Source of the DNA: Candidatus Poribacteria bacterium
GTDB lineage: Bacteria > Poribacteria > WGA-4E > PCPOR2b
Reading direction: 5' to 3'
Assembly: GCA_965218095.1 (NCBI GenBank)
Contig: OZ244587.1
Coordinates: 1,668,720-1,732,719, forward strand
Length of the DNA stretch: 64,000 nucleotides
In this document: one piece after another, positions 7,987-46,653 of the stretch
How positions within the stretch are numbered: position 1 is the stretch's first letter
Layout of the letters: each line of letters opens with the position of its first letter
The notes under the pieces: model-generated
The model's input: the letters and a program-made list of their open reading frames with translations, nothing else
What the model was told of the DNA's origin: nothing
Databases searched by the model: none
Translations under genes and position numbers: made by a program

Positions 7987-8206
7987 CTTACTATTACCCA
8001 TAAGTCTGCAAACCCTTGTGGTATAGGGATTCTGCCCGCCGATGAATCAGCGGGCTACACGGCTGCGTCCGATGAAGAAACCGATAAACGAAGTTTATTA
8101 GTTTCTCCTGAATTGAACTGAGAAGATCGCTCGAAAGCCCGATGAATCGGGCTTCTTTTTCTGTAACTCGGCGACTTCATCGCCGAGCGAAAAGATGTGG
8201 GTAATA
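7987..8206 (+). repeat. MITE-like structured repeat, copy 2 (upstream of the 1210-aa gene)
   Basis: Same orientation and architecture as copy 1. Hairpin plus T-tract at 8145-8170. A 3-nt deletion and several compensating stem substitutions relative to copy 1. Confidence 0.6.
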
Positions 8207-8254
8207 GATAGCAACTTTGAGGGGACATATAGAGGGAGACTTTTCAAAGTTAAA

Positions 8255-14533: not shown

Positions 14534-14709
14534 TCGATTACCTGACACACCCTGAGTTTGTCAGGTACAACCCGGGGTTGCCACTGTCAGCACAAGGACG
14601 TCATTTGTGTAGATGTTAAAGAAATTGTGTGTTAAACTTACTCCTATTTATGGTGATTTGTTTAATTCTGTTAAAGCGAAGGAACACTCATGATTACAAG
14701 GGGAAATCG

Positions 14710-16660
14710 ATGAATTTCCGACAGAAAATCACACTACATCTTTTGCTCTATATCGCTCTGTGCAGCGCTGCATTCGCGCAAGTCGTCGACATCCCCGCCC
14801 CCAACCTCCAAGTTGCAATCCGTCAAGAACTCCAACTACTCCCCGGCAGTAGGATTACAAAAGAAGACATGCTGTGGCTAGAAAGGCTAAACGCAGCCCG
14901 CCACGATATAATTGACCTTATGGGCTTAGAACACGCAACTAATCTGGCAAGTTTGTCCTTATGGGGAAATCAACTCGCCGAACTAACACCGATAGCCAAC
15001 CTCCGAAGATTGACATACCTTGATACGGCTGCCTGCTCCATTTCAGATATAAGCGTGGTATCAAACCTCGTTAGTTTAACCACTCTAAACGTTAGGTTTA
15101 ACCAGATTGTCGATATTAGCCCGCTCGCCAACCTGACAGACCTAGTTTCGCTGTGTTACGCCACTAGCAAATCTCACACAACTCACCGAATTGTACCTGA
15201 GCGATAATCGCATTGCAGATATTAGCCCGCCTGCAAGTTTAACAAAATTGGATTCGCTAGACATTCGACGTAACCCCGTTACTGACTACACCCCGCTTGA
15301 TGGACTCGCTTTAACCCATTTTTTATACGACGAATTTTGCGAACACCTGCCGCTTCCCGTACGCGACAGGATTCATAATAGAAACTACCCGTCCATATTC
15401 GCGAGATGGAGTGGATTAGGTTGGGTTCCTATTAGCAATCGTCCCGAACTATCAGATATGGAAAATGTAGCACGTCATGATTTATGGTTCAGCGTCAACA
15501 TGTTTGGATTAACCTTCTTCGAAACGCCTGACGGATTTAAGATGTCGGGCGAGATTGACAAGGCGATACGCCGGCGAGATGAATTTCTTGCCCTCAATCC
15601 CAATATGGTTTTTCTTGTTACGATTGCTATGAGAACGTACTCACTCAATGCTTTTCCGGAAGACTGGCCATATTGGATAAGGGACGCACAGGGGAACATC
15701 CAGCGCGAAGGATTAGTTGATTTTACGCACCCGGACATCCAGGATAGAATTGTTCAACAGGCTATAACGGTATCAAGGTGTGGCTTATATGACGGTATTA
15801 TCTTCGATTGGTGGAACGAGCATGGTGCCGTTCTTGCCGATTTTGATGGGAATTGGGAAGATAAATATCGCGGAAATGAAGCCGAACAACGCGCTCGAGA
15901 CAACATCGTACGCGGCATCCGGGCTGCAACTCGACCCGACTTTTTGATAATGGGCAACACCAATCGAACCAAAATCCCACGTACAGGGCCTTACATCAAC
16001 GGCGGCTTTATGGAAACCGTCGTACCTCATGATAGAATTGGCGCAGTCCTCGAACAACACCTGAACGAGGTTGAAGACTCGCTGCTTTGGCTAGATCAAA
16101 ATCTACGAGAACCACAAATAAACGGACTGGAAGGTTTGAGTGTTCTCACTGAGCCACCAGATAGCTAAACCAATCTTCGGTGGATGCGAGCTATCACAAC
16201 CTTGAGCCTCACGTATTCCGATGGCTATGTTCTTTTCACCGAAAGCATAAAATACACCCACTATTGGTACGACTTTTGGGACGCCGACCTCGGTCGCCCT
16301 GTCGGTCCAAAAGCCCAATTGTACGACAACTGCCCCGGTCTCTATATTCGCGAATTCACGAACGGGTGGGCGGTGTACAACCACAGCGGCAAGCCGCAGA
16401 TAATAACCTTGCCAGAAAAAGTGCAAGCTGTAGCAAGCGGTTTGGTGAACACCGAGCACGCCCTCCCTAACCTCGACGGCGAGATGTACTTTCGCATTAA
16501 GCCGAAGAATCGCGCGGATGTCAATGGCGATGGAGTGGTGAATATCCTAGACTTGACGCTGGTTGCCCAAGGCTTCGGCACAGATAAATCTGGTGTGGAC
16601 GTGAATGGGGATGGGGTCGTCAATGTGTTTGACCTTGTGTTCATAGCGAACCAATTTTGA
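14710..16660 (+). pseudogene. secreted LRR / TIM-barrel-like / dockerin protein disrupted by one frameshift (about 15143-15160) and one in-frame TAA (16166-16168)
   Basis: Signal peptide MNFRQKITLHLLLYIALCSAAFAQ with an AAGGGGA RBS. LRR units continue across the frame change (PLANLTDL / PLANLTQLTELYLSDNRIADISP). The ORF at 16184 is in frame with the previous one across a TAA. The C-terminal double dockerin is DVNGDGVVNILDL...DVNGDGVVNVFDL. Confidence 0.7.
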
Positions 16661-19557: not shown

Positions 19558-19994
19558 TCAAGGGAGCCATATAAGAGTGGAGACAAAGCTGAGAAATCCA
19601 AAATAACGGATAGCTAACTTCTCGAACCGAGAGAAGATGCGGCGATACCATTTTATCTTGTTAATGAAACATTCAACCCGATGTCTCTCTTTGTACAGAT
19701 GTTTGTCGTAATCTCTTTGATCCACACGATGACTTTTGGGCGGTATCACCGCAATCGCTCCATTCGCCTCAATAACCGCGATAAAATTGTCAGAGTCATA
19801 TCCCTTGTCTCCAATCACATACTCGCTTTTATATCCAAGTATCAACGCTTCTGCTTCTGCTATGTCGTTTCTTTGACCGGGCGTCAGATGTATTCTTAGT
19901 GGATTACCCAGGCCGTCAACGATGATGTGAATTTTTGTACTGAATCCCCCGCGAGAGCGACCTAACGCTTGGTTTTCAGTGCCACCCTTTTTTT
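19558..19994 (-). CDS. IS427-group transposase OrfB (DDE domain), reached by -1 frameshift from OrfA
   Basis: ...STKIHIIVDGLGNPLRIHLTPGQRNDI...VIGDKGYDSDNFIAVIEANGAIAVIPPKSHR... Confidence 0.75.
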
Positions 19995-20348
19995 TAAGGC
20001 ACCCGCCACACACGGGTGCGCTCGAATGATTGTACTGTCCACAATAAGCGACTCGATATCGGGGTCGGCGGCGAAGTGGGGGTGCATCTGTGTGAAGATA
20101 CCTTTGTCGCACCATCGAGCAAACCGCTTGTAGCGGGTGTTCCATTTGCCATAGGTGTCTGGTAGAAGTCTCCATTGAGCCCCGCTACGAGTCACCCACA
20201 GGACGGCTTCGACGAAGCGGCGTGTAGCAGCTTCGTCGCCAACATAGATGGTGAGACAGCTAAGAAGAAACCGGTATATCTTATTCCATTGTTCATCAGG
20301 TAAGGTTATTGGCGTCATTCTTCTATTATGCCACAACCTTATACTCAA
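19962..20348 (-). CDS. IS427-group transposase OrfA
   Basis: 128 aa, MSIRLWHNRRMTPITLPDEQWNKIYRFLL... It ends in the poly-A frameshift window. Confidence 0.8.
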   Translation of the reverse strand: MSIRLWHNRRMTPITLPDEQWNKIYRFLLSCLTIYVGDEAATRRFVEAVLWVTRSGAQWRLLPDTYGKWNTRYKRFARWCDKGIFTQMHPHFAADPDIESLIVDSTIIRAHPCVAGALKKRVALKTKR

Positions 20349-31297: not shown

Positions 31298-32623
31298 TTA
31301 TCCCAGATCGCGGCGAAGTTCCGCTTCCGATGCCAAGTCCGCGACCGTCCCCGGCGGATGCTTATACCAGCCGGGGTCGTCATAACTGGTGAGATTTTCG
31401 CGGATTTTGACGATGGTAAACATCCCGCCCATCGTAATGTAGTCAAACGGACCGTATGCCCCGACCATGGGAATGCTGTTTTTCGGCACAGCCATGTGCC
31501 CCGATTCGACGTGAATCCCATGTTCACCCATGCCGTGCTCGCCCATCGTCATATACGCAGGCAGAAGTTGGCGGATTTTCTGGTCAATGTTGCCCTTTTT
31601 GATGCCGACCACGTTTAAAAATTCGTGCCCCATCTGGTTCATGACATGATGCGTCATGTGGCAGTGCATCGCCCAATCCCCCGGATCGCTGGCAACGAAC
31701 TCAACATCGCGGGTTGTCCCCACCGGAACGAGAACTGTTGTTTCTGGCCATTGTCCTGAAGTCGGGATTCGCCCACCTTCTGTAGCGGTGATTTTGAAGT
31801 AGTGCCCGTGCAGGTGAATCGGGTGATGGTCCATCGCCGAAAGATTGCCGAAGCGAATCCGCACCCGGTCGCCCAGTTTGGCGACCAGCGGCTCGGTTCC
31901 GGGGTAACACTTCGCGTTCATGGTTAGGATATTGAAATCGTTCATCTCGTTAGGGTTTGGCGTGGACGTCCCCGGATCGATCCGCCACTCGCTTAACATG
32001 ATGGCAAAGTCCCGATCTACTTGGTAATGGGGGTCAGGTTTTCTGGGGTGGAAAACCATCATGCCGAGCATCCCCATCGCCATCTGGGTCATCTCGTCGT
32101 GGTGGGAATGGTACATATACGTGCCTGATTGTCGAATTGTCCACTCGTATTTGAAGGTCTCCCCCGGCTGGATAGCTCGCTGGGTCAACCCACCCACACC
32201 GTCCATCCCATTCGGTAGAAAGACGCCGTGCCAGTGAACAGCGGTTGGTGCCTTGAGCCGGTTGGTCACATAGATGCGGACGCGATCGCCTTCCACGGCT
32301 TCAATGGTCGGTCCGTGCACCTGCTCGTTGTAACCCCAGCACTTCGCTTTCAGACCAGGGGCAAATTCATGCCAGACTTCTTCAGCGATAAGGTGAAAGA
32401 CTTTTACCCCATCAACAATCTTCCACGGTAGCGGTGCACCGTTCGGTGTGACGACCGGCGTGTAGTCTTTATCAGGGATACCCGGGTCCATCGCCGGACG
32501 ATTTGAATTGCCTGCGTAGGATTTCTGCCATTGGGATTGGGCGGCTTCTACACCTCCCGAAGCCCCGAAAGCGAAAGCCCCGCCAACGAGAGCACTCGTT
32601 TTCAAAAGATCCCTTCGGTTCAT
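31298..32623 (-). CDS. copA: multicopper oxidase (CopA/CueO-like) with a Tat signal
   Basis: MNRRDLLKTSALVGGAFAFGA. Copper-binding HWHG and HCHMTHHVMNQM motifs. Confidence 0.85.
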   Translation of the reverse strand: MNRRDLLKTSALVGGAFAFGASGGVEAAQSQWQKSYAGNSNRPAMDPGIPDKDYTPVVTPNGAPLPWKIVDGVKVFHLIAEEVWHEFAPGLKAKCWGYNEQVHGPTIEAVEGDRVRIYVTNRLKAPTAVHWHGVFLPNGMDGVGGLTQRAIQPGETFKYEWTIRQSGTYMYHSHHDEMTQMAMGMLGMMVFHPRKPDPHYQVDRDFAIMLSEWRIDPGTSTPNPNEMNDFNILTMNAKCYPGTEPLVAKLGDRVRIRFGNLSAMDHHPIHLHGHYFKITATEGGRIPTSGQWPETTVLVPVGTTRDVEFVASDPGDWAMHCHMTHHVMNQMGHEFLNVVGIKKGNIDQKIRQLLPAYMTMGEHGMGEHGIHVESGHMAVPKNSIPMVGAYGPFDYITMGGMFTIVKIRENLTSYDDPGWYKHPPGTVADLASEAELRRDLG

Positions 32624-32624
32624 C

Positions 32625-34082
32625 TCAATGTCCTCCTTCCTGGTTTGTCAATGACAGTTCAGCCATGCGGTGAAGCCGGTAGGGTCGAAAAGTGAATCCC
32701 ACTAGCCGACCGTTGAGAATCTGTTCCAGTTCCGCTCGTGCGACATGATAATTGTAGAGCGACTGGATATATTCCCGACCGGCGTCAATCTCGCGCTGTT
32801 TTGCGAGTAACAGGCGTAACGCACCGACCTGCATTGCATTGTACTGTAGTTGGACCTGTTCGAGAATCTTCTCTTGGAGTGGAAGTATTTCATTCTGATA
32901 AGACAGTGCGGTCTGTCGAGCGGTCAATAGGCGACGTCGCGCGGCGCGAACCGCGGAGCGGATCTCAACCGCCAGTGCGTGGTATTCACCCTGCTGTCGG
33001 CGTAACTCTGCCGCTGCCGCCGCTCGCTGCCCCTGATTTCGATCGAAAAGTGGAATCTCAAACCCCAGTGCGGGTCCCGCTGCCCACGCTCCTGCTTCCT
33101 GCTCAATCTCCCCACCGATTTCCAAATTCGGCACGAGAGACATCGCTTTTGCCACGCCGAGTTGTTTCCCGATGGAAACGATGCCCCGCCGTGCAATGGC
33201 AAGGTTGATGCTGTTTTCAATCGCCCGCTTTTCGAGGTTGTCGAGTCCTATTGCTTCAGCAGGAATGTCGCGGAGTCGAGATTCGACTCTCCACGCCGTA
33301 TCCTCTCCCCACAACCCCATCAAAGCGTTGAGTTGCTCACGGTTTTCAGCAAGCGTGACCTCCGCAGCAGCGAGTTCTAACTTCGATCGCTCATAGGACG
33401 TTTTTTGAAGCAGTAGGTCTAGCTCCGGGACATTCCCCGCTTCGACAAGCTGTTGGGCGAACTCGTAACCCGCCTGCGTTGCCAAGACGATCTGCTGGAA
33501 CATTTCCAACATCTGCTCATCAGCTTGAACGCGGTAGAATGCCATTCGCGTTTCCCCTGCCAAATCCACCACGGCAGCCGTCATGCGCAGTTTCGCTGCC
33601 TCGAACTGGGATTTCGCTACCGATTTGCGCATCGGCGCGTACAGCATGGAGAGGAAATCCATTTCGACTTCAAAGGTGTACGTGCTGTTGTCACGGAGTT
33701 TGTCCACCATCTCCTCGTCGGAATCAGAGGGGCCGAAGGTCGTTGCGCCGTGAAAAACCGGATTCGAGAACAAGCCAGCGTCAACAATGGCAGCGTGGGC
33801 AATCCCCAATTCCTCATAGGTCGCTTGCAGACGATGGTTATTCAACAGCGCAATTTGAACGGCAGCATCGACGGTCAGCGGCTTATCCAACAATTCTCTA
33901 ATTGCCTGAGCCGCTTCATCATCCGCAGCCGTGTCCGCATTCCAGTGAATACGGTAGCCAATACGGTCATCCACCTGCCGCTGGACTTCGCTGAAACCCG
34001 TTTTTTTCGACACACCGGCGCAACCGATCAGGACGAATGACGCCGCGAAGAACAACACGGCGCATCTCATTTTTTCGTTCAT
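32625..34082 (-). CDS. TolC/CusC-like outer-membrane efflux protein
   Basis: 485 aa. Lipoprotein-like N-terminus LIGCAG. Two OEP repeat halves. GAGGAG RBS. Confidence 0.75.
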   Translation of the reverse strand: MNEKMRCAVLFFAASFVLIGCAGVSKKTGFSEVQRQVDDRIGYRIHWNADTAADDEAAQAIRELLDKPLTVDAAVQIALLNNHRLQATYEELGIAHAAIVDAGLFSNPVFHGATTFGPSDSDEEMVDKLRDNSTYTFEVEMDFLSMLYAPMRKSVAKSQFEAAKLRMTAAVVDLAGETRMAFYRVQADEQMLEMFQQIVLATQAGYEFAQQLVEAGNVPELDLLLQKTSYERSKLELAAAEVTLAENREQLNALMGLWGEDTAWRVESRLRDIPAEAIGLDNLEKRAIENSINLAIARRGIVSIGKQLGVAKAMSLVPNLEIGGEIEQEAGAWAAGPALGFEIPLFDRNQGQRAAAAAELRRQQGEYHALAVEIRSAVRAARRRLLTARQTALSYQNEILPLQEKILEQVQLQYNAMQVGALRLLLAKQREIDAGREYIQSLYNYHVARAELEQILNGRLVGFTFRPYRLHRMAELSLTNQEGGH

Positions 34083-34103
34083 CTAGTAAACTCCTCGTCT
34101 GTT

Positions 34104-34985
34104 TTAATAGTTATGTTCGTGTGCATCGTGTCCATGAGGGTCTTCCGATTCATCCTCGTGATGCTCCATCTCCTCGTGCTCCTGTGTTTTGTGCATGTCA
34201 TGATGGTGATGCTCGTGTCCACCTTTTTCCTGCTTATGCTCGTGAGACTTCATGTCCTCGTGTCCAGACATATCGGTGCTTGAGACGGGCATCTGCATTT
34301 TCGCGCTGTGGCACTTGAGCATCGCGCTTCCGAAATACGGGTTGCGGACGTCCTCGCCGACTTGCAGCCAGATACCCCCTTGCGGGACATCGGACGCCAT
34401 ACCGCACACGTAGCTGTAGACCGGACTCTCGTAACTTGCTGGCACACTGACAGCGGCAACGAAGTGATTGAGGACATCGCTCAACGAACCGTAGGCGACA
34501 CGCGCAGCTTTGATGTCCGAGAGATCGCCGACTTCATGTCCATGGTCATGGATGGCCTCGGTATGGGCTTCGTAAGAATGCCACAACTCGGCGGGCACTT
34601 CGTGTTCAAGCGTATGGAGGGCTTCGAGCATCGCGTGCGCCTGCGCGTTGACATCTTCCATCGTGTCGGAAGCGAGTTGGTCGCCGATGACGAAATAGGC
34701 GTCTAGCATCATCGCCAGCGCTTCTTCGCCTTCCTCCGACAACGACGCAGCCCTGTGATGCGCTGCGACGCCTTCTTCAGTCATCGCCATCTCTTCCTTT
34801 AGCGTGTCTGGTGGAATTCCAAAGACAGTCTGCGGCGCACCAGGATGCGCCGGATGGTCCTGTGGAGTAGCAACTTCGACTGTTTTGCCGCCGCATCCAA
34901 CGACAAGCGACGATACAATGATGAGTCCAAGGATAAGTGTAGATACGGTTCGTTTATGGAAGTTGAAAACCCTGGATAACATGAG
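34104..34985 (-). CDS. His-rich periplasmic/lipo-protein (DUF3347-like heavy-metal-binding)
   Basis: LVVGCGG lipobox. C-terminal run GGHEHHHHDMHKTQEHEEMEHHEDESEDPHGHDAHEH. Confidence 0.5.
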   Translation of the reverse strand, partial: LMLSRVFNFHKRTVSTLILGLIIVSSLVVGCGGKTVEVATPQDHPAHPGAPQTVFGIPPDTLKEEMAMTEEGVAAHHRAASLSEEGEEALAMMLDAYFVIGDQLASDTMEDVNAQAHAMLEALHTLEHEVPAELWHSYEAHTEAIHDHGHEVGDLSDIKAARVAYGSLSDVLNHFVAAVSVPASYESPVYSYVCGMASDVPQGGIWLQVGEDVRNPYFGSAMLKCHSAKMQMPVSSTDMSGHEDMKSHEHKQEKGGHEHHHHDMHKTQEHEEMEHHEDESEDPHGHDAHEHNY

Positions 34986-35113
34986 CATAGCCTCCGTTTT
35001 GGGTAAAAAATGATCAAAGATAGGTTTTGGGCGTTTCAACATAGACGCGCAGAAACGCCGATCGATCAATAGATTTTGAGTCTTTCAGATTTGGGAAAGC
35101 GTGGAGGAGAAAA

Positions 35114-35581
35114 TCAGGTGAAAGGAAACGGAGGGGCGCGGGGGGAAATCTGCTGAGTAGGAGAATCTTTGTAGGGTTTGTAGGCGAATTGAAGATAGGA
35201 AGTGAAAGAAACGGAGTCGGAAGAAATCTTAGGAATTGCAGGGATTAGCGCAACAAATGAGAACTTGCCTTTTTGTATTTGTGAGACGAGCTGAGGTTCG
35301 CTGGCTCCGAGCAATTCCCACCGGTTTAAGCAACAATTGTCGTCTCCATCGTTTTGGCTTTCGTGGGGGCGGGCTGGTTGATTTTCAGCATGACAGCAAG
35401 TTGGATTGTCTGTTTCAGCGGTGGTTTGTGACAAGGTCAGAGACTGCCGATAGATCGAGGCTTTATCGGATTCGGCGTCTCCACAGTCTGCTTCTCGGAG
35501 TGCTGGACATAGCACCGGGCAAAGAAAATAAACTGAAGATATCGAGAGTAAAACCAGCGCGTAAACGTCCTTGAATTTCAT
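35114..35581 (-). CDS. secreted Cys-rich hypothetical protein in the copper islet
   Basis: Signal peptide. CGDAE, CCHAE and CCLNRW motifs. GGGAGG RBS. Confidence 0.35.
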   Translation of the reverse strand: MKFKDVYALVLLSISSVYFLCPVLCPALREADCGDAESDKASIYRQSLTLSQTTAETDNPTCCHAENQPARPHESQNDGDDNCCLNRWELLGASEPQLVSQIQKGKFSFVALIPAIPKISSDSVSFTSYLQFAYKPYKDSPTQQISPRAPPFPFT

Positions 35582-35876
35582 CAAATTACCGCCTCCCATG
35601 CAATAATACTTCTACGCAATAATAATAATTATACCCGGCTTTGCGTATGGAAGTCAAATTTTTCGCCAGGGGCATTTAATTCTCGGCTTTGACCTCTCCC
35701 CCGGCCCCTCCCCCCGATTTCTCGGGCAGAGGGGAGCAAAGGCCTCCCGAAAACACCGTCTGGCGCGAGATTTGTCTTCCCTTCTTTGCAGCGGAGAGGG
35801 GGTGAGGAGATGAGGTTCGGAGAATTAAACGACCCTAAATTTTCGCTCAGAAAAAACTTCCAAACTCTTGCAGAGA

Positions 35877-36173
35877 CTAACCCATAACCGCCTCTTCCTG
35901 TTCAACCGCAATCGAGAACCACCTATACAGCGCCGGAATCACTAACAACGTCAAAATGGTTGATGTGACCAAACCACCGATCACCACCGTTGCCAAAGGA
36001 CGTTGTACCTCGCTGCCAGTACCATGGGACAAGACAATGGGGACGAGCCTAAGCCCAGCCGCGGATGCTGTTATCAGCACGGGACGTAGCCTCAAGCAGG
36101 CGCTGCGAATACATGCGTCGGTCATGGGAATTCCCTCCTGTAGGAGCTGGTTGAGGCAGGTCACCAAAACCAT
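35877..36173 (-). pseudogene. C-terminal remnant of an RND heavy-metal efflux pump (CusA/CzcA family)
   Basis: Only the final 98 aa are present (...RPLATVVIGGLVTSTILTLLVIPALYRWF), against about 1040 aa for a complete pump. Confidence 0.65.
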
Positions 36174-36285
36174 GCCATTGGCGAGAGCAATCCCGAAGAG
36201 CGCAATGAAGCCTATCGATGCCGGGACAGACAGGTTTTGCCAACTCTTTGAGAGACCCGGAAGCTAAGATAAATCGTTTGATGAA

Positions 36286-36736
36286 GTGAAGATCTCCTTC
36301 GCTCAACGCAGACAGCCACTTCGGGATTTGCGCTTCGCTTACAACCGGGGAGATTGTTTCGGAGGAGTTCGATTTCACAGTAACACCCAACGCCCTTGCA
36401 AACGCAGTTCTGCCAGTAAGGCTTGATGGGGTTGGCACGCCGAAGCAGACCCTTCTGTTGCAGAACTATCTCAACCCGTTCAACCCTGAAACGTGGATTC
36501 CGTATCACCTTTCGGAAGCTGCTCCTGTAACCCTATCAATTTACGACACGACCGGACAACGGATACGGACGCTTTCGCTTGGATTCCAGTTAGCAGGCTT
36601 CTATCAAAGCCGTCCACGCGCTGCCTATTGGGATGGGTGCAACGACTTGGGTGAACGGGTTTCAAGCGGGGTCTATTTTTACCAATTGTCCACCCCATCT
36701 TTCTATCGGATGAAGCGGATGGTTATTGTGAAGTAG
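36286..36736 (+). pseudogene. orphan T9SS C-terminal sorting domain with linker, lacking a start codon and a protein body
   Basis: ...FDFTVTPNALANAVLPVRLDGVGTPKQTLLLQNYLNPFNPETWIPYHL...YFYQLSTPSFYRMKRMVIVK. The open frame begins right after a TGA at about 36283. Confidence 0.65.
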
Positions 36737-36784
36737 CCTTGGGTTGGTTGTTGCAACAATCGTCAATTGAAAGGCGGAATGACA

Positions 36785-37198
36785 CTACCAAGTACGAGTG
36801 AAACTTAACCTTCCGGTCAGCCCGGTTTGCTCTTCCGCTTTTTTGGTGTCATACCCAACAAGTATGCCGAGAGTGTTATTTTCGCCGTAGCCGATGTTGA
36901 TTCGCGGACCGACTACGAGACTGAAACTGTCACCCTTAACAGCGGGGATGGAAACACCAAGGTCAAACTCTCCGATGGTATCGTTGATGTAAATATTAGA
37001 ATCGAGCGAGATGCCGCCAACGGAATGGGTTGCCCCGATTAGGAAATGCGTTCCTAAGGTATCGGTATCGACGCGGAACCAGCCGGGAATGCGGGTTTTT
37101 TCGGCTGCCGCTTCACTTTCATCGCTCTCTGCCCAGACTGAACTACTCCCAACGGTCACGATACAAACGATTATCAAAACATGGGTGAATCTATACAT
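36785..37198 (-). CDS. small secreted hypothetical protein (beta-rich)
   Basis: 137 aa with a signal peptide. No recognised domain. Confidence 0.4.
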   Translation of the reverse strand: MYRFTHVLIIVCIVTVGSSSVWAESDESEAAAEKTRIPGWFRVDTDTLGTHFLIGATHSVGGISLDSNIYINDTIGEFDLGVSIPAVKGDSFSLVVGPRINIGYGENNTLGILVGYDTKKAEEQTGLTGRLSFTRTW

Positions 37199-37323
37199 TT
37201 TGCTTTATATCCTTTCTTGTAATAGACTAGGATTATGCCTTTAGAACCTCAATACCGTAGGCGGAGTATTCTTGCCCCGCTCCTCAATTATACCCTTGGC
37301 AGCCGATTTTTGAAATTAAAAAA

Positions 37324-37353
37324 TTTGTCAAAGTCAATCCGCTTGTGCTACAA
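37324..37353 (+). promoter_or_regulatory. sigma70-like promoter TTGTCA-18nt-TACAAT (copy 1 of a duplicated 35-bp promoter cassette)
   Basis: aaaaatttgtcaaagtcaatccgcttgtgctacaat. Identical over 35 bp to 43198-43232. Confidence 0.5.
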
Positions 37354-37374
37354 TAACCCAAATTGCTACCTAAA

Positions 37375-38486
37375 CTGAGGGGTGTGCATAGTAGTTCATT
37401 GGAAAACAGCCGCCATATGAGAGATATTGCGAGCAGGTAACTTCCATATGGCATTGGCAATCATAGCCACTTGCACTGATAACACCCCGATAGCTAAACA
37501 ACAGCGTACATTGAAAAACCCCTTGACCGGTAACTGCTTCTGTTGAGGAGTGGTGCCTATCACTTTAGCAATCAAGTCAAACAACGGTTCAACCGAACTG
37601 CGACGTTTGCTTAAACAGAGACGCTGCTTGGGTTGGTTGATAAATCGATGATACGCCTTGGCAAACCGTCCCTTTGTCCATCTAAGTGCCGGGGTAATCA
37701 AAGCGACTTGTGCCTTCGCCCAACGACGGATACGGTCTGCTTGGGTATAGGCATCATCGGCAGTGAGTGTCTGCGGTGAAAGTTGTGTCAGAATCTCAGA
37801 CGCTTTAGCATCTATCGCCCAACTTTCGGAGACCGACGCACGGTGCACAGTTATCAGTGTTGGGAACGCACCTTGTGTGCAGATAATGTGAAGTCCGTAG
37901 CCATAGACCCAGCCATGATAACCACTCTTGCTCCACGTGGCATCGGTGTCGAGGTTGCGTAGATGTTTAGGTGCTTTTCCTGCTTTGCGGTCAGTTTGAT
38001 GCCAGACGGGTCCTCGTGCCTTAAATAAACTTTTGTCGGCTACCAGATGAGCCAAGTTGAATTGTTGGGACAAGTCAGTGGCATACTGACCGATAAACAA
38101 TACAAATGCCTCTATCACTTCATATAATGCCTTATAGCGACGTGCAATCGTGGTTCGATGAGGGGGCTGTTGCCACCCCAGCATTTGTAACACTTCTGGG
38201 TGATTGATTAGCCACCGCCATTGCGTTTTGAAGCCATAGATGCCGTGAAACTGCATCAACATGAAGAAAATGATAAACGAGGTGGTTGAATATGTCAATG
38301 GTTTTGCGTGTGTGACACCTGGTTTGTCAATACGGTGTTGCATAAACTGCTCAAAGAGTTGCATAATAAGAGTGACATAATCAGCCAACATTGGTCTTTG
38401 TACCATATTGGGGCTCCTTTTGCTATGATAACAATAGGAAACCCTTTTGGCTTGATTATGTCAACTATATTTATGCACACCCCTCA
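37375..38486 (-). mobile_element. IS4/IS5-superfamily (DDE_Tnp_1) insertion sequence, 1112 bp
   Basis: 15-bp terminal inverted repeat TGAGGGGTGTGCATA / TATGCACACCCCTCA. A 7-bp direct repeat CCTAAAC at 37368-74 and 38487-93. One 336-aa transposase ORF at 37396-38406. Confidence 0.75.
37396..38406 (-). CDS. DDE transposase (IS4/IS5 superfamily)
   Basis: 336 aa occupying the body of the IS element. Confidence 0.7.
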   Translation of the reverse strand: MVQRPMLADYVTLIMQLFEQFMQHRIDKPGVTHAKPLTYSTTSFIIFFMLMQFHGIYGFKTQWRWLINHPEVLQMLGWQQPPHRTTIARRYKALYEVIEAFVLFIGQYATDLSQQFNLAHLVADKSLFKARGPVWHQTDRKAGKAPKHLRNLDTDATWSKSGYHGWVYGYGLHIICTQGAFPTLITVHRASVSESWAIDAKASEILTQLSPQTLTADDAYTQADRIRRWAKAQVALITPALRWTKGRFAKAYHRFINQPKQRLCLSKRRSSVEPLFDLIAKVIGTTPQQKQLPVKGFFNVRCCLAIGVLSVQVAMIANAIWKLPARNISHMAAVFQ

Positions 38487-38921: not shown

Positions 38922-41900
38922 TTGAATAAGCGGATTACCTCAATACCTATTGTGCTAGCACTCTATACAATCCTAATATGTATTCCATCTTCGGTATATG
39001 CCAAAAAGGGGGTAAGACAGCAGATTCAACTGAAAGCAGGCGCGGCGTTGCAGCGGATCAAATCCGATTCAGAAACCCCTGTCCGTGCACGATGGCATCA
39101 GAACCGGGGGACAGTCCGCAACCTTTACAATTTGACACTGCCTGCCCCGATAGGAACGCTGGAAACATCAGTGCGTCAATGCCTTACCGACTATTGTGAC
39201 CTTTTTGCGATGACTGATCCAAACATCGAGTTGCGTCTCACGGATATCCAAAACAGCTTAACGGGCAGACATGTTCGATTCCATCAATACTACAACGGTA
39301 TCGAAGTTTACGGTGCAGTGACCTCGGTCCACACCAACCGCTCTGGGCAGATACGAGTCATCCACAACAACTACTTCCCACAGATCAACATCAGTACAGC
39401 GGCATCGCTCTCCCCGGAACAAGCAATCAGTATCGCCATTGCCGAGTCCGGTGCATTCGATTTGCGCAAGCCGCCGCGTGTCAACTTGGTAATTTTCCCG
39501 GATCGTAATACGGGACAGATAGGCGACTATGCTAATGCGTATCGCCTCGCTCACCGCACAATCGTGCACTCCCGTCAACCACTCGCAAGTTGGGAGTATA
39601 TCATTGACACCAACACCGGCGAGCTGTTGCACCGACGGAACCTGCTCAGGTTTGCTGACGGACAAGGGCGCGTCTTTAACCCGAATCCTGTTGTCGCCCT
39701 TAAAGATTTCACGCTCATGGACCAAGATGATTCTCCTGACGCGATACCAGAAGCAGCGTATACGGATGTGATGCTACCTGAGTTGGACGGGAGTGGTTTT
39801 CTTGATGGGCCTTACGCGAGTACGAGATTGACCGAAAATCGTGCCAACGAGCCGACGCTGGGGTTCAACTATCTCCGAGATGATCCCCGATTTGAGGAGG
39901 TGATGGTCTATTATCACGTTGATGCCGTTGGGCGTTATTTGAAAGGACTCGGCTTCGATTTCGTGGACAATTGGCAGATTCCTGCGAATGTGCATTTCGG
40001 TATGACGAGGGCTGGTTTCTATAACGATAGTGAGGGATCGATTAATTTCGGAGATGCCGGTGTTGATGTTGCCGAAGATGCTGAAGTGATTATCCATGAA
40101 TATGGTCACGCGATCCTTGATCGACAGGTCCCTAACATTAACAAGGGCGAAGGTGGCGCGATACACGAAGGGTTTAGTGATTTTCTCGCAGCCAGTTTTT
40201 TCAGTGCCGTGAGCGATGGTTTTAGTGACTCGATCGTTTTTGAATGGGCTGGTTCAGGTGACCCTGAGATTTACACTCGTCCCGTAACTGGTAACAAGCG
40301 TTATCCCGAAGACATTGTGGGTGAGCCACACACCGATGGAGAGATTTGGTCTGCGGCACTATGGGAGATTTTTGAGGCGATTGGACGCGATGCGTCGATC
40401 CGCTTGATTGTCGAGAGCCATTTCTTCCTCTCACCCGACACGGAACTTGTCGATGGGGCATCAGCGATTTTTATGGCGGATCAGGAACTGAATGGTGGAG
40501 TAAATTTCGACCTAATTTTGGGAATTATGGAGAACCGTGGATTCTTTACGCTGCCCAAATTGGCATCGGATGCCTTTGAGGAGAACGATACAGCGGAGAC
40601 CGCAGCCGCGATTGAGCTCCCGTTTGTCAACGGAGAACTGTCCGTCCACACAGCGGACAATGATGATTACTATAGATTCCGTTTGGATGAGACAATGCAG
40701 GTTGGGTTGGGAATTGATTTTCAACCCATTTACGGGGAGTTGATGCTAACATTGATGGGACCTAATGGTATCGAGCTTGTTACCTTCGAGACGAAGGATG
40801 TTACATCGCTTGAATTAGTGCCGGGCGATTATGTCGTTGCAGTTTCGGGCATCAACGGTGCGACTAACGATTATAAACTAGCGCTTATCGTTGACAACCA
40901 CGGCGATACGCCTGACACAGCGACATCTGTGGCGATCGGCGACACGATAGAAAGTTTCATCGACTTCAACGGAGATACGGATTTCTTCGCGATTGAAGGT
41001 GAGAAGGGGCAGCGCATTGAAATCACTATTACGACAAAGAACTCCGACCTCGACTCTCTGCTCGTTGTCTATGGACCAGATGGTGAGCTCTTTGCTAAAA
41101 GTGATGATGTCTTGCCGACCATCGGTCCGGAGCCGATTCCCGAACTAAATCCGCGTGGGATTGATTCCCGCGTGAGTGAAAAACTACCAGCCAATGGAAC
41201 GTACCTGCTCGCTGTCAGCAACATTGCACTTCCCAATCTGAATGCCCCCTTTGGCGGTCTAAACTACTCTTACACACTGACGATCAGTGGGAAGACCGAT
41301 GACCATGCAGCGTGCGGTAGTGGCGAGGAAACGCCATTGACCTTCGATGCACCTATAACAGGTATCATTACCCTTAGCACCCTTAGCGGTGATCCTACAT
41401 CACCGGATCCTCAAGACTCGGAACCCGATCTTCATGACTCGGACGGTTTCCGCTTTGAAGCGTCAGAGGGCACTGTCATTGCCCTACACGTTGAGGTAGA
41501 AACGCCTGCACGCGAGGTAATATTTATGGTGACCCTCCTCAGTCTTTTGGATGCATCTGGAGAAACGTTGGTATCTACTCGTGGCGCTCCTAATGGCTTA
41601 GAGGTGCGGATTGATGGATTTCTCATCCCTGCCGATGGCGAGTATTGTGTTGATGTTGCCGGTTTCATAGGAGGTGCGGTTGGTTCCACTTATACCTATA
41701 CGCTGACGTTATCTGAGGGCGAACTGCCCGAAGATGATCACGAAGATCTGAAAGGGAATCCAACCCCCTTAACGGTGGGTGTTCCTGTCGAGGGAGCGAT
41801 CAGTTTTGTCGGGGATGCCGATGCGTTTCAGTTTACTGCTACAGCGGGACAAATCATTACGTTAGCGGTGGACGGGCAACCCGCCACTCCGTTCTCTCGT

Positions 41901-42962
41901 TTAGTTTTGACCCTGTATAATAGCGATTTACAGCGTTTAGCCGAGGTTCCGCTCTTTATAGAAGGTATTGATTCGATGCTAGAAGGATTTGAAATTCCTG
42001 TGGACGGAATTCACTATGCCGAGATTAGAGATATGTTCGGAGGAAGTGAAGCGAATTTTTCCTACACACTGACCCTGACAATCGAAGAGGGAGATGTTGA
42101 GCGTAAATTTCCCCCTTATGATGTCAACCAAGATGGCAAGGTGGACATTTTTGATCTCGTGCTTGTCGGTCAACATTTCGGCGAAAAATTCATTAACGCC
42201 ACGCCAACTGCAGATTTTGGACAGTTCCGTTCGGTATCGCCCGAAGGGGAGTTGCGGCTCCTGATGACCCCGAGTGTGACGGATACACGACAATTGACCG
42301 TCTCAATCCACACCACAGCGATTGCCGATCTTTACGGCTACCATTTTTCAATCCAGTACGATCCGGCGATATTAGAGTTCCTTACTGCATCACCAAGCCC
42401 GGTTTTAGCCGCTGCGCTGCCCCAAAGTTACTGGCATATCTCCCAGCAAGGGACACAACTGAAGTTCACACAGACACGTCAAGCAACGCTGAAAGGTGTG
42501 ACAGCAGAGGGTTCACTGGCTATGCTTGTTTTTCATGTCAAAAAGACGGTGCCCCCGTCGTCGCAGCCCCCCATCCGGCTCGTTGACCTGCAACTGGCGG
42601 ATTCGCTGACAAGAGCGATTCCGGTGCACGTGGTCGGTGAGCGAGTGTCAATGACAGAGCTATTCCCTGAGAAACCGATGTTGCTGCAAAACCACCCGAA
42701 CCCGTTTAACCCGGAAACATGGATTCCGTATCAACTCTCTACCGATTCAGAGGTGGTTATCTCAATTTACGATACAAACGGTGAGCGTGTCCGTCAATTT
42801 GACCTCGGCTATCAGCACGTTGGGACATACATTACTCGCGGTAGGGCGGCCTACTGGGATGGAGAAGACATGTATGGTGAGCAGGTTGCGAGCGGCTTAT
42901 ATTTTTATCAGATCCGGGCGGGTGCGTTTTCTGCGACCCGCAAAATGGTTATCGTCAAATAG
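38922..42962 (+). CDS. secreted mosaic metalloprotease: FTP/PepSY-like propeptide, M36/M4-type gluzincin domain, 4 PPC (pre-peptidase C-terminal) domains, dockerin-like module, T9SS C-terminal sorting domain
   Basis: 1346 aa. TTG start with a GGAGA RBS. HEYGHAILD plus EGFSDF at about 40097-40200. Four DxDxY/FxF PPC units (ADNDDYYRF, GDTDFFAI, HDSDGFRF, GDADAFQF). YDVNQDGKVDIFDLVLVGQHFG at about 42115. C-terminus LLQNHPNPFNPETWIPYQL...YFYQIRAGAFSATRKMVIVK. Confidence 0.85.
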   Translation: MNKRITSIPIVLALYTILICIPSSVYAKKGVRQQIQLKAGAALQRIKSDSETPVRARWHQNRGTVRNLYNLTLPAPIGTLETSVRQCLTDYCDLFAMTDPNIELRLTDIQNSLTGRHVRFHQYYNGIEVYGAVTSVHTNRSGQIRVIHNNYFPQINISTAASLSPEQAISIAIAESGAFDLRKPPRVNLVIFPDRNTGQIGDYANAYRLAHRTIVHSRQPLASWEYIIDTNTGELLHRRNLLRFADGQGRVFNPNPVVALKDFTLMDQDDSPDAIPEAAYTDVMLPELDGSGFLDGPYASTRLTENRANEPTLGFNYLRDDPRFEEVMVYYHVDAVGRYLKGLGFDFVDNWQIPANVHFGMTRAGFYNDSEGSINFGDAGVDVAEDAEVIIHEYGHAILDRQVPNINKGEGGAIHEGFSDFLAASFFSAVSDGFSDSIVFEWAGSGDPEIYTRPVTGNKRYPEDIVGEPHTDGEIWSAALWEIFEAIGRDASIRLIVESHFFLSPDTELVDGASAIFMADQELNGGVNFDLILGIMENRGFFTLPKLASDAFEENDTAETAAAIELPFVNGELSVHTADNDDYYRFRLDETMQVGLGIDFQPIYGELMLTLMGPNGIELVTFETKDVTSLELVPGDYVVAVSGINGATNDYKLALIVDNHGDTPDTATSVAIGDTIESFIDFNGDTDFFAIEGEKGQRIEITITTKNSDLDSLLVVYGPDGELFAKSDDVLPTIGPEPIPELNPRGIDSRVSEKLPANGTYLLAVSNIALPNLNAPFGGLNYSYTLTISGKTDDHAACGSGEETPLTFDAPITGIITLSTLSGDPTSPDPQDSEPDLHDSDGFRFEASEGTVIALHVEVETPAREVIFMVTLLSLLDASGETLVSTRGAPNGLEVRIDGFLIPADGEYCVDVAGFIGGAVGSTYTYTLTLSEGELPEDDHEDLKGNPTPLTVGVPVEGAISFVGDADAFQFTATAGQIITLAVDGQPATPFSRLVLTLYNSDLQRLAEVPLFIEGIDSMLEGFEIPVDGIHYAEIRDMFGGSEANFSYTLTLTIEEGDVERKFPPYDVNQDGKVDIFDLVLVGQHFGEKFINATPTADFGQFRSVSPEGELRLLMTPSVTDTRQLTVSIHTTAIADLYGYHFSIQYDPAILEFLTASPSPVLAAALPQSYWHISQQGTQLKFTQTRQATLKGVTAEGSLAMLVFHVKKTVPPSSQPPIRLVDLQLADSLTRAIPVHVVGERVSMTELFPEKPMLLQNHPNPFNPETWIPYQLSTDSEVVISIYDTNGERVRQFDLGYQHVGTYITRGRAAYWDGEDMYGEQVASGLYFYQIRAGAFSATRKMVIVK

Positions 42963-43583: not shown

Positions 43584-43723
43584 TCTCCTAATCTAACCCA
43601 TATCTCTGCTTTTTTGACCCAATCAATTTCTATCTTTTCCCTGGCTGATCTGTATCTGACTTTGGCGGTAGTCTGCCTAAGTCGTGATGCCGGGAAAAAC
43701 AATTTATCTATATTTTGGAGGAC

Positions 43724-44299
43724 ATGATGTTTACCTGTTTTTTTAGATTCACTCTGTTACTACTCGCATTTGCTGTGCTGTTCGCCGCTTGTAGCGAAGA
43801 TGATAATCCCATTGTTGACCATGACGACGAACCATTTCATGCCGATGCCGACGGTTTTATCCTCAAGGTTGACGGGAACGAGATCTACCGCCAATTTCAG
43901 GGGACGCATACGGGAGGTATCACCCTCAAAGTCGGGGAGGAACTGGATGTTCTCGCCGTGTTCCTTAACCAGCATGAAGAGGAATTTTTCCCTGAAGCCC
44001 CGGAAGAGGGCGAAGATCACGACCACGACGATCATGGTGAGGAAGAGGTGTTTGCCTTAGCTCTCAGCGGATTTGATTCATCAACCATTGAAGTACACCT
44101 TTACGAAAGTGAGGAGGACGACCATGAAGATGATCACGCTGAAGAAGGCGAAGACCACGACGATGAGCTCGCCGAAAAATTTACCTTTGAGGTGAAAGGG
44201 CTTAAAGCCGGAAAAACAGAGTTCAAACTCCAGCTATTGCACGGCGACCATCCTGATTTCACGGCGGCGTTCTCGACTCCCGTAACGGTTACACCGTAG
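43724..44299 (+). CDS. His/Asp/Glu-rich lipoprotein (putative periplasmic metal-binding protein)
   Basis: LFAAC lipobox. GEDHDHDDHGEEE and EDDHEDDHAEEGEDHDDE runs. Confidence 0.5.
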   Translation: MMFTCFFRFTLLLLAFAVLFAACSEDDNPIVDHDDEPFHADADGFILKVDGNEIYRQFQGTHTGGITLKVGEELDVLAVFLNQHEEEFFPEAPEEGEDHDHDDHGEEEVFALALSGFDSSTIEVHLYESEEDDHEDDHAEEGEDHDDELAEKFTFEVKGLKAGKTEFKLQLLHGDHPDFTAAFSTPVTVTP

Positions 44300-44442
44300 G
44301 GAGCATTTGCTTGGGAGATTGTTTTGTCGGATTGCCAAATCCAACAGTTGGTCTAGAGTTGGCAATCCAGACAGAGCAAAGTGAAAGTGGAACTACCCGA
44401 ACTGAGTAGATTTTGACACAACTCTAAGATCAGAGGCTTCCG

Positions 44443-46653
44443 ATGAAACGCTTAATCTTTTGTCTATTCACCATTCTCCTGACTCATAATGTAGACGGGG
44501 TATCCTTGTCCCGCCCCGTTTCCGTTTCAGGGCAGGTGATTGATGCTGAAGCGGAAACTCCCCTTGTGGATGTCCATGTATCCCTGTTACGCAAAGCAGA
44601 AGGCGCATCTGTGTTCCAAACCGATAGGACTGGACAGTTTCGGTTTGATGGAATTGCGGTGGGAACGTATACACTTCGATTCAATCACGTTGGCTATGAA
44701 ACGTTAGATCAAGAAATCGTTGTCAAGGCGGACTCGACAACGATGGCAGTGAAATTGAAACGCAGTCCGCTCCAACTTGGAGAGATTGTTGTTACACCCG
44801 GTGACGAGGAGCACGCTCATTTTGAGAAAACCACCGACCTCAACCTTTCAGCGCAGCAGCTTGATCAGCAAATGGGAGTAACCATAGCCGAGACGCTTAG
44901 CGGAGAGGTAGGGATCGCCCAGCGGACGATGGGGCGAGCAACCGCGCGTCCGGTCATCCGGGGCATGGGCGGTGATCGGCTGCTTATCCTCGAAAATGGC
45001 GGGCGCACCGGCGATAAATCAGCGTCCTCAGCAGATCACGCGGTTGCAATTGACCCAACCACCGCGACAAATATCGAGATTACGCGCGGACCGGCGTCGC
45101 TAATTTATGGCTCAAGCACACTCGGCGGTGTCGTCAATGTCAAGCGCGAGACCATCCCGCAAACCCTGCCCCATCGTCCAACGATGAATCTCACATTTCA
45201 GAGTGAGTCGGTCAATTCAGGGCTGACCGGAACGACAGAGCTGACGATTCCGATTGGTAACCTTGCGTGGAGGCTGGAGTTGAACCGCCGCCACACCGAC
45301 GATACACATACCCCCATCGGTATTTTAGAAAACACGTCGCTATCGCAAACTAATTTTGCGACCGGTATCTCAATGGTCAAGGATTGGGGACACATTGGGA
45401 TTTCAGGCGGTAATTACCGTTCAGATTACGGGATTCCCGGTTCGCCGGAAGGACACATCCAAGGCGTCACTATCGACCTCGACCGCCAACGGTATGAAGG
45501 TAATTTTGAGTATGGGTTTCAGCAGTCGTTTCTTGAGAAACTGAAACTGCACTCGACCTACACACGCTATCAGCATCAGGAGATTGAATCAAACAGCACG
45601 CTCGGTGTTGAGTTCGGCCTATTGACATACAACGCGTCCGCATTGGCTTATCTGCACGGCGATGCAGTTGCCGGGGTTTGGGGCGAGTACCGTGACCATG
45701 CGACGGGCGGGTTTTACTGGACGCCGCACACGCGGGAGATGTCCTTGGCGGGTTTCTATTTCAAACAGAAGCGGCTCAACGCCTCCTTTACGTTACAAGG
45801 TGCAATTCGCTACAACATCAGACGGGTTGAGCCATTTGTGGAAGGTGCTGTCATCCGCGCAGGAACGGTGCAACGACGGGACTTCGGCGGCATGTCGAGT
45901 GCGGTTTCGAGTATCTATCATTGGAACGACAACTTGGGAACTGGTGCTACCTTGATGAAGACGTTTCGCACACCGGGAATCGAGGAACTCTTTTCAGATG
46001 GTCCGCATCTCGCAGCCTACTCCTACGAAATTGGTAATGCCGAACTCGGTTCGGAGGATGGCTTCGGGACAGAGGCATTTCTGCGCTATGCTGCCGAGCG
46101 CGTGAAACTAAATCTCACCGTTTTTCGCAACCAGATTTACAGTTATCTGATTCCGACCAACACAGGCGAAAAGGAGTGGGGGAGTGGTGCGGCGGGGTGG
46201 CTGTGGATATATCAATACCGGGGACAAGAAGCCATCCTTGACGGAGCCGAATTTAGCATTGACACTGAAATCGTCCCACGATTTCAGGCACAGGTGCGCA
46301 TGAGTTACGTCAAAGGGACTTTGACAACCAGTGGATCACCGCTTGAACGCATCCCGCCGCTCAACGGAAAAGTGGCGCTGCGATACGTAACGCAGCCGCT
46401 AAACTTTCACTTCACGGCGCGATTTTCAGACGACCAGCATCGGCTCGGCGAATTTGAAGAGGCGACCGACGGGTACATCGTCTACGATGTGGGCTTGCAG
46501 TTGGCGTTTCCGATGTGGCGACTTCAGCATCAGATGGTTGTCGCGGTCGAGAATATCTTCGACACCGAATACCGTCAGCACCTTTCGAGAATCAAATCAG
46601 TAATGCCGGAGCCGGGACGGAACGTGAAATTTTTATATCGGCTGAATTTTTAA
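44443..46653 (+). CDS. TonB-dependent outer-membrane receptor
   Basis: 736 aa. CarboxypepD_reg-like N-terminal domain, plug domain, and a C-terminal beta-barrel ending ...RNVKFLYRLNF. Confidence 0.85.
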   Translation: MKRLIFCLFTILLTHNVDGVSLSRPVSVSGQVIDAEAETPLVDVHVSLLRKAEGASVFQTDRTGQFRFDGIAVGTYTLRFNHVGYETLDQEIVVKADSTTMAVKLKRSPLQLGEIVVTPGDEEHAHFEKTTDLNLSAQQLDQQMGVTIAETLSGEVGIAQRTMGRATARPVIRGMGGDRLLILENGGRTGDKSASSADHAVAIDPTTATNIEITRGPASLIYGSSTLGGVVNVKRETIPQTLPHRPTMNLTFQSESVNSGLTGTTELTIPIGNLAWRLELNRRHTDDTHTPIGILENTSLSQTNFATGISMVKDWGHIGISGGNYRSDYGIPGSPEGHIQGVTIDLDRQRYEGNFEYGFQQSFLEKLKLHSTYTRYQHQEIESNSTLGVEFGLLTYNASALAYLHGDAVAGVWGEYRDHATGGFYWTPHTREMSLAGFYFKQKRLNASFTLQGAIRYNIRRVEPFVEGAVIRAGTVQRRDFGGMSSAVSSIYHWNDNLGTGATLMKTFRTPGIEELFSDGPHLAAYSYEIGNAELGSEDGFGTEAFLRYAAERVKLNLTVFRNQIYSYLIPTNTGEKEWGSGAAGWLWIYQYRGQEAILDGAEFSIDTEIVPRFQAQVRMSYVKGTLTTSGSPLERIPPLNGKVALRYVTQPLNFHFTARFSDDQHRLGEFEEATDGYIVYDVGLQLAFPMWRLQHQMVVAVENIFDTEYRQHLSRIKSVMPEPGRNVKFLYRLNF

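Follow-up and report, generated by a model that had tools for sequence, protein, structure and literature searches.

A predicted secreted M36 protease of Candidatus Poribacteria bears a dockerin-cohesin tail that recurs across the phylum

A stretch of 64,000 nucleotides from a Candidatus Poribacteria bacterium (assembly GCA_965218095.1, contig OZ244587.1, positions 1,668,720 to 1,732,719), hereafter the window, was analysed computationally with a focus on the open reading frame (ORF) at 38922-42962 on the forward strand. This ORF, whose coordinates and length of 1346 aa are exactly those given in an initial annotation made from the sequence alone, encodes a predicted secreted zinc protease that ends in a dockerin repeat, a cohesin and a C-terminal domain (CTD) that is conserved, and an identical protein (P0001) is on record from a 6.35 Mb contig. 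Candidatus Poribacteria is a candidate phylum of sponge symbionts and is placed outside the Bacteroidota/FCB group in the NCBI taxonomy; it is also the phylum to which NCBI-named homologues and the genome scan assign the window. The tail of the protease belongs to a family of module cassettes found throughout this phylum, and Ca-dependent pairing of these modules may bring the proteins that bear them together at the cell surface.

The protease and its modules

The target gene and its modules were delimited as follows (window positions, strand, description).

38922-42962, +: whole gene for a pre-pro M36 metalloprotease that has four PPC modules and ends in a tail of dockerin, cohesin and CTD; 1346 aa, TTG start, from the ORF list
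38922-39002, +: Sec-type signal peptide, aa 1-27, MNKRITSIPIVLALYTILICIPSSVYA with cleavage before KK; read from the sequence
39231-39374, +: fungalysin/thermolysin propeptide (FTP) motif, aa 104-151; PF07504 at 40.2 bits against a Pfam gathering score (GA) of 21
39684-40556, +: M36 catalytic domain, aa ~255-545; PF02128 at 38.1 bits against a GA of 23.3, matched over aa 382-533
40554-40937, +: PPC/collagen-binding-type module 1, aa 545-672; AlphaFold2 (AF2) model with a pLDDT of 81.5 and a fold match, without Pfam match
40938-41339, +: PPC module 2, aa 673-806; PF04151 at 36.7-53.5 bits against a GA of 25.9 (Pfam match over aa 685-766)
41340-41765, +: PPC module 3, aa 807-948; PF04151 sub-threshold at 13.4 bits, assigned by hhalign
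41766-42095, +: PPC module 4, aa 949-1058; PF04151 sub-threshold at 17 bits, assigned by hhalign
42117-42185, +: single dockerin repeat, aa 1066-1088, Ca loop DVNQDGKVDIFD and helix; PF00404 at 17.4-22.6 bits against a GA of 22.9
42246-42653, +: cohesin module, aa ~1109-1244; PF00963 at 24.8 bits (whole protein) to 28.1 bits (segment) against a GA of 24.1
42684-42962, +: CTD, aa 1255-1346, a TIGR04183/FlgD_ig-type beta-sandwich, NPFNPETWIPY ... RKMVIVK; 148 bits against the family hidden Markov model (HMM)

Judged by its sequence, the target is a zinc endopeptidase that is secreted and belongs to the fungalysin family (MEROPS M36, gluzincins). The gluzincin zinc site is complete, comprising HExxH (HEYGH, aa 392-396, nt 40095-40109), the downstream Glu within ExxxD (EGFSD, aa 416-420) and a His/Asp pair (H470 and D472), the last of which stabilises the transition state in peptidases of clan MA(E). 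As both motifs, H470 and D472 are invariant among 61 full-length orthologues, the enzyme is very probably active. The initial annotation had described the core as M36/M4-type; with PF02128 above its GA and the motifs located, the family is M36, and approximately 100 homologues of the target are annotated with the same Pfam domain. Matches of the catalytic domain to PDB entries were weak (the M4 enzyme bacillolysin, 4b52, and an 'extracellular metalloproteinase', 7qp3). The N-terminus of the target is kept in the orthologue consensus. A propeptide of FTP/PepSY type had also been proposed, of which the FTP part passes Pfam and the PepSY part found no Pfam match in the target at E<=0.1.

Four tandem PPC modules follow the catalytic domain, as first annotated, although Pfam alone passes only module 2 and the remainder were supplied by hhalign (modules 3 and 4) and by fold (module 1). 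Using profiles built from the orthologue alignment, module 3 was matched to modules 2 and 4 with hhalign probabilities of 97.3% and 99.7%, respectively, and module 4 was matched to module 2 with a probability of 98.7%. Module 4 also matched the ColG tandem collagen-binding domain (5iku) by phmmer (E 0.0095), and Foldseek placed the model of module 1 with the collagen-binding domains of the clostridial collagenases ColG/ColH and with a PPC domain from a B. anthracis collagenase (5sv5) at TM scores of 0.71-0.78. The signature D-x-D-x-[FY]-x-F was read from the sequence in all four modules; self-BLAST of the target protein returned no internal repeats, and the modules were established by profile-profile and fold comparison. 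The arrangement is like that of ColG/ColH, where tandem C-terminal PPC-type beta-sandwiches also come after a zinc protease (TM 0.71-0.75, identity 18-24%), but the catalytic domain of those enzymes is M9 rather than M36, and collagen binding by the target modules is putative. By analogy, modules of this collagen-binding type suggest a protease acting on host matrix.

Dockerin repeat, cohesin and C-terminal domain of the tail

The dockerin-like module of the first annotation holds up at the level of its loop. The segment D1067-V-N-Q-D-G-K-V-D-I-F-D1078, followed by LVLVGQHFG, fits the Ca-loop pattern with D/N at positions 1, 3, 5, 9 and 12, the clostridial loop consensus DxNxDGxxDxxD is present, and a helix follows the loop in the structural model described below. 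The loop residues are invariant in the 61 orthologues, and the repeat scores 58 bits against the family HMM. Canonical dockerins consist of two repeats, and for this reason the single repeat of the target lies just under the Pfam threshold. Neither the target nor a paralogous protein of 1210 aa in the same window has two tandem ~22-residue repeats scoring at or above the GA (one repeat each, with 20.0 bits for the latter); a disrupted third gene has the full two repeats and passes Dockerin_1 with 38.7 bits against a GA of 22.9. The other module-bearing features of the window are listed here.

4274-7906, -: paralogous 1210-aa protein with a metzincin-like HELGHAFGLNH domain, a WD40 propeller, leucine-rich repeats (LRR), one dockerin repeat (nt 4727-4792), a helical linker and a CTD (nt 4277-4552)
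14629-16660, +: disrupted gene with a signal peptide, LRR, a GHL15-like region and a two-repeat dockerin (nt 16517-16657), without CTD
36458-36736, +: orphan CTD remnant of 92 aa (stop-to-stop frame starting at 36290), lacking any module that could be recognised upstream of it, adjoining a DDE transposase

A six-frame HMM scan of the window counted three ORFs with a dockerin and three CTDs, and no others. The same number of dockerin-bearing proteins had been counted originally, including the pseudogene, which carries one frameshift near 15.18 kb and one in-frame stop at 16166-16168. The metzincin-like domain of the 1210-aa protein matches Reprolysin_3 exactly at threshold.

The initial annotation supposed that the dockerins dock to an unseen cohesin scaffold. 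The target itself carries a cohesin, which had been overlooked between the dockerin repeat and the CTD; it scores 124 bits against the family HMM, and it was the sole cohesin in the window in a six-frame scan with that HMM. PF00963 is precomputed on many of the target orthologues as well. An AF2 model of the last 292 residues (m0c92bf894fdf, window 42084-42959) had a pLDDT of 88.6 and a pTM of 0.79, with 10-residue pLDDT means of 80-96 across the cohesin module, and its top Foldseek matches were solved cohesins, among them 1ohz_A and 1aoh_A from C. thermocellum and the non-cellulosomal 2xdh from Archaeoglobus (probability 1.0, TM 0.70-0.73). Taken together, the clostridial cellulosome pairs (1ohz, 2ccl) and the non-cellulosomal cohesins of Archaeoglobus fulgidus (2xdh) and C. 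perfringens (2jh2/2w1n) share the fold at TM 0.67-0.73, but identity to them is 12-18%, and the target differs further in its one dockerin repeat, in having no SLH/sortase anchor and in its non-carbohydrate-active cargo. With cohesins present and the Ca-binding pattern matched, neither of the grounds on which the original proposal was to be set aside (no cohesins, dockerin loops off pattern) was encountered. The fibril form of Vpr, a Bacillus serine peptidase (PDB 8jmw), ranked 16 among the fold matches of the tail model, which hints, at the level of modelled structure, that Ig domains of the FlgD/Vpr type are able to polymerise when they stand at the C-terminus of a protease.

The CTD passes TIGR04183 (28.3 bits against 23) and FlgD_ig (29.8 against 27; profile match region aa 1259-1344), and lies below threshold for the Pfam model of type IX secretion system (T9SS) domains, PF18962 (20.8 against 27). 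Against PDB sequences, it matched FlgD at an E-value of 0.014 and the CTD of PorU at 0.26. Alignment of the three CTDs of the window gave 55% identity between the target and the 1210-aa protein, 56.5% between the target and the orphan fragment, and 65% between the latter two, with E-values of 1e-34 to 1e-42 that are far beyond chance; the first estimate of about 60% was thus close to the measured 55-65%. In 93 sequences, the NPFNPETW motif region (positions 203-215) has 10 of 11 consecutive residues invariant, and the final Lys is near-invariant. The CTD stands at the extreme C-terminus of a target with an N-terminal signal peptide (read from sequence), and likewise in 114 ORFs of poribacterial loci. 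Because it is strictly C-terminal and far better conserved than the otherwise unrelated passengers, the CTD has the signature of a shared sorting signal, although its assignment to T9SS by these scores is borderline.

The combination of an M36 protease with such a domain is already curated as NCBIfam NF038113 (T9SS-dependent M36), and one M36 protein, P0091, bears the name 'T9SS type A sorting domain-containing'. NF038113 and PF02128 fungalysins share with the target the FTP propeptide, the gluzincin core (HExxH...E) and a CTD of TIGR04183 type. The target nevertheless falls outside NF038113, with 55.7 bits where the equivalog asks for 885. It also differs by its additional modules (four of PPC type, one dockerin repeat and one cohesin) and by its origin in a phylum where T9SS machinery was not found.

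A tail cassette family across Poribacteria

The domain identities, folds and conservation described above, and the family and taxonomic range described here, were established directly. All of the 68 target homologues at 44-87% identity have the dockerin-cohesin-CTD tail, whereas the nearest M36+PPC relatives, at 38-40% identity, do not, which argues that the tail was grafted after the fourth PPC module. The nearest tail-less relatives (P0075-P0077) end in a different conserved C-terminal segment (...FFRARRL...), which may be another sorting-type domain.

A search with the tail alone matched thousands of proteins. Among the best 120 matches, the most common architecture was cohesin-dockerin-dockerin-CTD (69), followed by dockerin-dockerin-cohesin-CTD (13), dockerin-dockerin-CTD (9), dockerin-cohesin-CTD (8), cohesin-dockerin-cohesin-CTD (5) and cohesin-cohesin-dockerin-dockerin-CTD (4). 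A cohesin and a dockerin in one chain, as in the target, is therefore the commonest form of the tail, and the cohesin can hardly be called unseen. The consensus of the family alignment likewise shows a cohesin, two dockerin repeats, a helical linker and the CTD in most members, and its dockerin-linker-CTD part corresponds to the tail of the 1210-aa protein. In species-representative genomes, the number of confirmed loci was at least 581; of the best 80, 76 belong to Poribacteria. One match of the tail search was a protein of Zixibacteria, and the phylum is hence not the sole bearer of the cassette. On sequence evidence, the poribacterial tail is a combinatorial kit of cohesin, dockerin and CTD cassettes that is phylum-wide.

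Module counts per ORF were obtained for the best 80 loci (L001-L080), each of ~8 kb. At least one tail module was present in 127 ORFs; 114 had a CTD, 71 of these together with a dockerin and/or a cohesin, and 9 further ORFs ended in a double dockerin without CTD. Genes with tail modules were often adjacent, and several loci lay <10 kb apart on one chromosome (L031/L032, L019/L048). Of 47 large passenger regions surveyed with Pfam, 19 contained LRR and 10 contained WD40 propellers. As these repeats dominate the sampled passengers, the kit appears to be carried mainly by eukaryote-like repeat proteins and not by enzymes. The term 'cellulosome-like' used in the initial annotation consequently overstates the catalytic side; the subunits are not mainly polysaccharide-degrading, and the target itself is a protease.

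The architectures bear on how the dockerin repeat of the target might be used. The repeat lies ~20 residues upstream of the cohesin, and could bind it intramolecularly or pair two molecules; enzyme and anchor would then be joined by a rigid stalk stabilised by Ca, and no higher-order network would form. One repeat falls short of a canonical dockerin, but the residues of its Ca loop do not vary, and the pTM of 0.79 would suggest, as far as a model can, fixed packing between the modules. Most members, however, have two repeats that come after the cohesin, and some have 2-9 cohesins, for which intermolecular binding is the better fit; moreover, the dockerin proteins that have no CTD would be purposeless. 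We therefore regard a tail locked in cis as quite unlikely.

It could also be argued that the modules are inert, i.e. beta-sandwich and EF-hand spacers or adhesion domains that do not pair, and that the CTD does not serve in sorting. Cohesin- and dockerin-like modules that are not cellulosomal and have no known function are common (of 1.84 billion representative proteins, 32,009 matched a profile of the cohesin alone, many with several cohesins), the CTD is at least as FlgD-like as it is T9SS-CTD-like, and the Vpr protease fibril is among the fold matches. Mere decoration is nonetheless very unlikely, given that cohesin and dockerin co-occur systematically and in many permutations, that the conservation and strictly terminal position of the CTD set it apart from the passengers, and that the Ca-loop residues do not vary.

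Of the top 150 matches of the cohesin profile, 31 have a C-terminal domain that the CTD HMM recognises. When the C-termini of 20 of these were compared with the target CTD, 15 were 49-69% identical and 5 were only 21-32% identical. One such protein, P0281 (2408 aa, 5 cohesins, Big_1 spacers and a CTD), is encoded in tandem with P0401 (3060 aa, 9 cohesins and a CTD) on a 4.7 Mb contig (L081 1-13227), adjoining a phage-type integrase. Their relatives include a named poribacterial protein, and their genome, which is not that of the window, is probably poribacterial. The separate cohesin scaffold imagined at the outset is thus matched by 5- and 9-cohesin proteins with the same CTD subtype, but these were found in another, probably poribacterial, genome.

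Such proteins invite comparison with Cloacimonadota (Ca. Stygibacter, PMC8542988), for which a cellulosome-like complex was proposed. There, peptidases and glycosidases with signal peptides carry C-terminal dockerins, and a single scaffoldin of 3755 aa carries cohesins and a T9SS-type CTD for surface attachment. Stygibacter is, like Poribacteria, a two-membraned non-Firmicute, and the substrate suggested for its complex is protein/polysaccharide instead of cellulose; it keeps plug and socket on different proteins, whereas in Poribacteria they are usually on one polypeptide with the CTD, and the passengers are mostly LRR/WD40. A classical arrangement of this kind, in which T9SS cargo enzymes would plug by their dockerins into a separate multi-cohesin scaffoldin to form a cellulosome-like surface complex, could draw on the existence of proteins with 3-9 cohesins and the same CTD subtype, on the CTD-less dockerin proteins, on the TIGR04183 score above cut-off, and on the very similar proposal for Cloacimonadota. 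We consider it unlikely for the target, as the protease and most of its relatives bear a cohesin of their own, repeat proteins rather than enzymes dominate the passengers, the 5- and 9-cohesin proteins were found in a genome other than that of the window, the CTD does not pass PF18962, and T9SS machinery was found neither in the window nor in poribacterial single-cell genomes (Kamke et al. 2014).

Several other genes of the window were noted. Region 31298-38406 holds a copper-resistance-like cluster (multicopper oxidase, outer-membrane efflux protein and a His-rich DUF3347 protein), downstream of which lie the truncated C-terminus of an RND pump (35877-36173, -), the orphan CTD and the DDE transposase (37396-38406, -), and the region looks as though it was scrambled by an insertion sequence. 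A second DDE transposase is encoded at 19558-20175 (-). Directly after the protease gene (43715-46653, +) come a His/Asp/Glu-rich secreted protein of 194 aa and a TonB-dependent receptor (CarboxypepD_reg, Plug and barrel). Within NCBIfam, this receptor comes closest to the zinc-piracy receptor ZnuD, with 194.9 bits and thus far under the cut-off of 950. A zinc-supply unit made up of the His-rich protein, the ZnuD-like receptor and the protease was considered and rejected, the neighbourhood beside the orthologue in L001 being different. An ORF of 398 aa lies directly upstream of the 1210-aa protein (pair at 4274-9451, -), with a signal peptide read from its N-terminus; it was considered as a T9SS component and rejected, having no Pfam or NCBIfam match. 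Lastly, a GH127-type beta-L-arabinofuranosidase gene (1252-3282, -) is consistent with the carbohydrate-degrading repertoire reported for Poribacteria.

Proposed surface assembly and its possible meaning for the symbiont

Ca-dependent assembly of the family members into a cell-surface network that includes the target protease is, in our view, somewhat favoured (a probability of roughly 0.55), and it is the likeliest explanation because one set of surface-directed proteins carries both the plug (dockerin) and the socket (cohesin). That the organism has two membranes follows from the outer-membrane proteins encoded in the window (OEP and the TonB-dependent receptor). The signal peptide would provide transport across the inner membrane, the FTP-containing propeptide would keep the enzyme folded and latent until its removal, and the four PPC modules (of the clostridial collagen-binding-domain type) would hold the enzyme on a proteinaceous substrate, for which collagen or the spongin-like matrix of the sponge host is plausible. 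The last ~290 residues would act as a grafted tail, with the Ca-binding dockerin repeat, the cohesin and the conserved beta-sandwich as a common sorting/anchoring signal, and the CTD would direct the protein to the cell surface by a T9SS-like or another route. CTD-anchored proteins would then offer cohesins into which dockerin proteins, including those without a CTD, could plug, with the 5-9-cohesin proteins as hubs of the network and the protease mixed with LRR/WD40 eukaryote-like proteins. The substrate, the cohesin-dockerin binding, the surface location and the export route of the target are what we infer in this scheme.

A number of observations weigh against such an assembly. The target has one dockerin repeat, where canonical dockerins have two, and it stays below the Pfam GA. 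The pTM of the tail model could mean that the repeat packs in cis, against its own cohesin, instead of engaging a partner. As judged by their relatives, the multi-cohesin hubs are of probable poribacterial origin. The gene neighbourhood of the target is not conserved and gives no functional support. The CTD falls under the PF18962 cut-off and is closer by sequence to FlgD than to the PorU CTD, and no T9SS genes (SprA/Sov, PorV, PorU, PorK-N) were found within the 64-kb window. Furthermore, the structural genes of Por secretion (T9SS) were not found in poribacterial single-cell genomes, whose pathway was left "to be revealed" (Kamke et al. 2014, PMC3909097). The T9SS export named in the initial annotation draws on the borderline match to TIGR04183 and is unproven.

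Kamke et al. (2014, PMC3909097) reported TIGR04183-like domains on WD40 and other repeat proteins of Poribacteria. Their proteins share with ours the phylum, the CTD on WD40/LRR proteins and the puzzle of the export route; the words cohesin, dockerin and 'peptidase' do not occur in that study, to which our analysis adds the structure of the cassettes and the multi-cohesin hubs. Among the papers searched, no later one resolves the poribacterial T9SS question, and a literature search on Poribacteria with cohesin/dockerin or T9SS returned only unrelated papers besides this one.

A cohesin-dockerin system outside the cellulosome has also been proposed for polypeptide degradation in freshwater Planctomycetes, the 'planctosome' (Andrei et al. 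2019, PMC6461901). It resembles the target in having an adaptor with both dockerin and cohesin, and Zn peptidase cargo, but differs in its lamin-tail anchor (not a TIGR04183/FlgD_ig CTD), in its M12B/M14 peptidases (not M36), and in being a small fixed system rather than a phylum-wide combinatorial family. Since the planctosome and the complex of Cloacimonadota precede it, the idea of a cellulosome-like assembly outside the Firmicutes, raised in the initial annotation, is not new, although the cohesin and dockerin modules on which it was based are present. What appears to be new is the poribacterial family of cohesin/dockerin/CTD cassettes, its predominance on eukaryote-like repeat proteins and the multi-cohesin hubs, for which no prior description was found.

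Poribacteria are among the most abundant sponge symbionts, and their eukaryote-like repeat proteins are thought to mediate interaction with the host. A shared tail, which is also present on at least one conserved protease, together with the hubs, offers a concrete and testable assembly model for how these repeat proteins are delivered to the surface and organised there. It also sharpens a puzzle that has stood since 2014, namely what recognises a T9SS-like CTD in a phylum in which no T9SS was found. A bolder form of the network reading, which we put forward tentatively and hold to be rather unlikely as a whole, is that a phylum-wide, combinatorial cohesin-dockerin kit, carried by proteins with one shared CTD, self-assembles a surface coat in which LRR/WD40 proteins and proteases would be mounted on 5-9-cohesin hubs, and would be exported and anchored through a pathway that recognises the T9SS-like domain, without canonical T9SS genes found in the phylum. 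If true, this surface coat would be a physical organiser of the interface between the symbiont and its sponge host.

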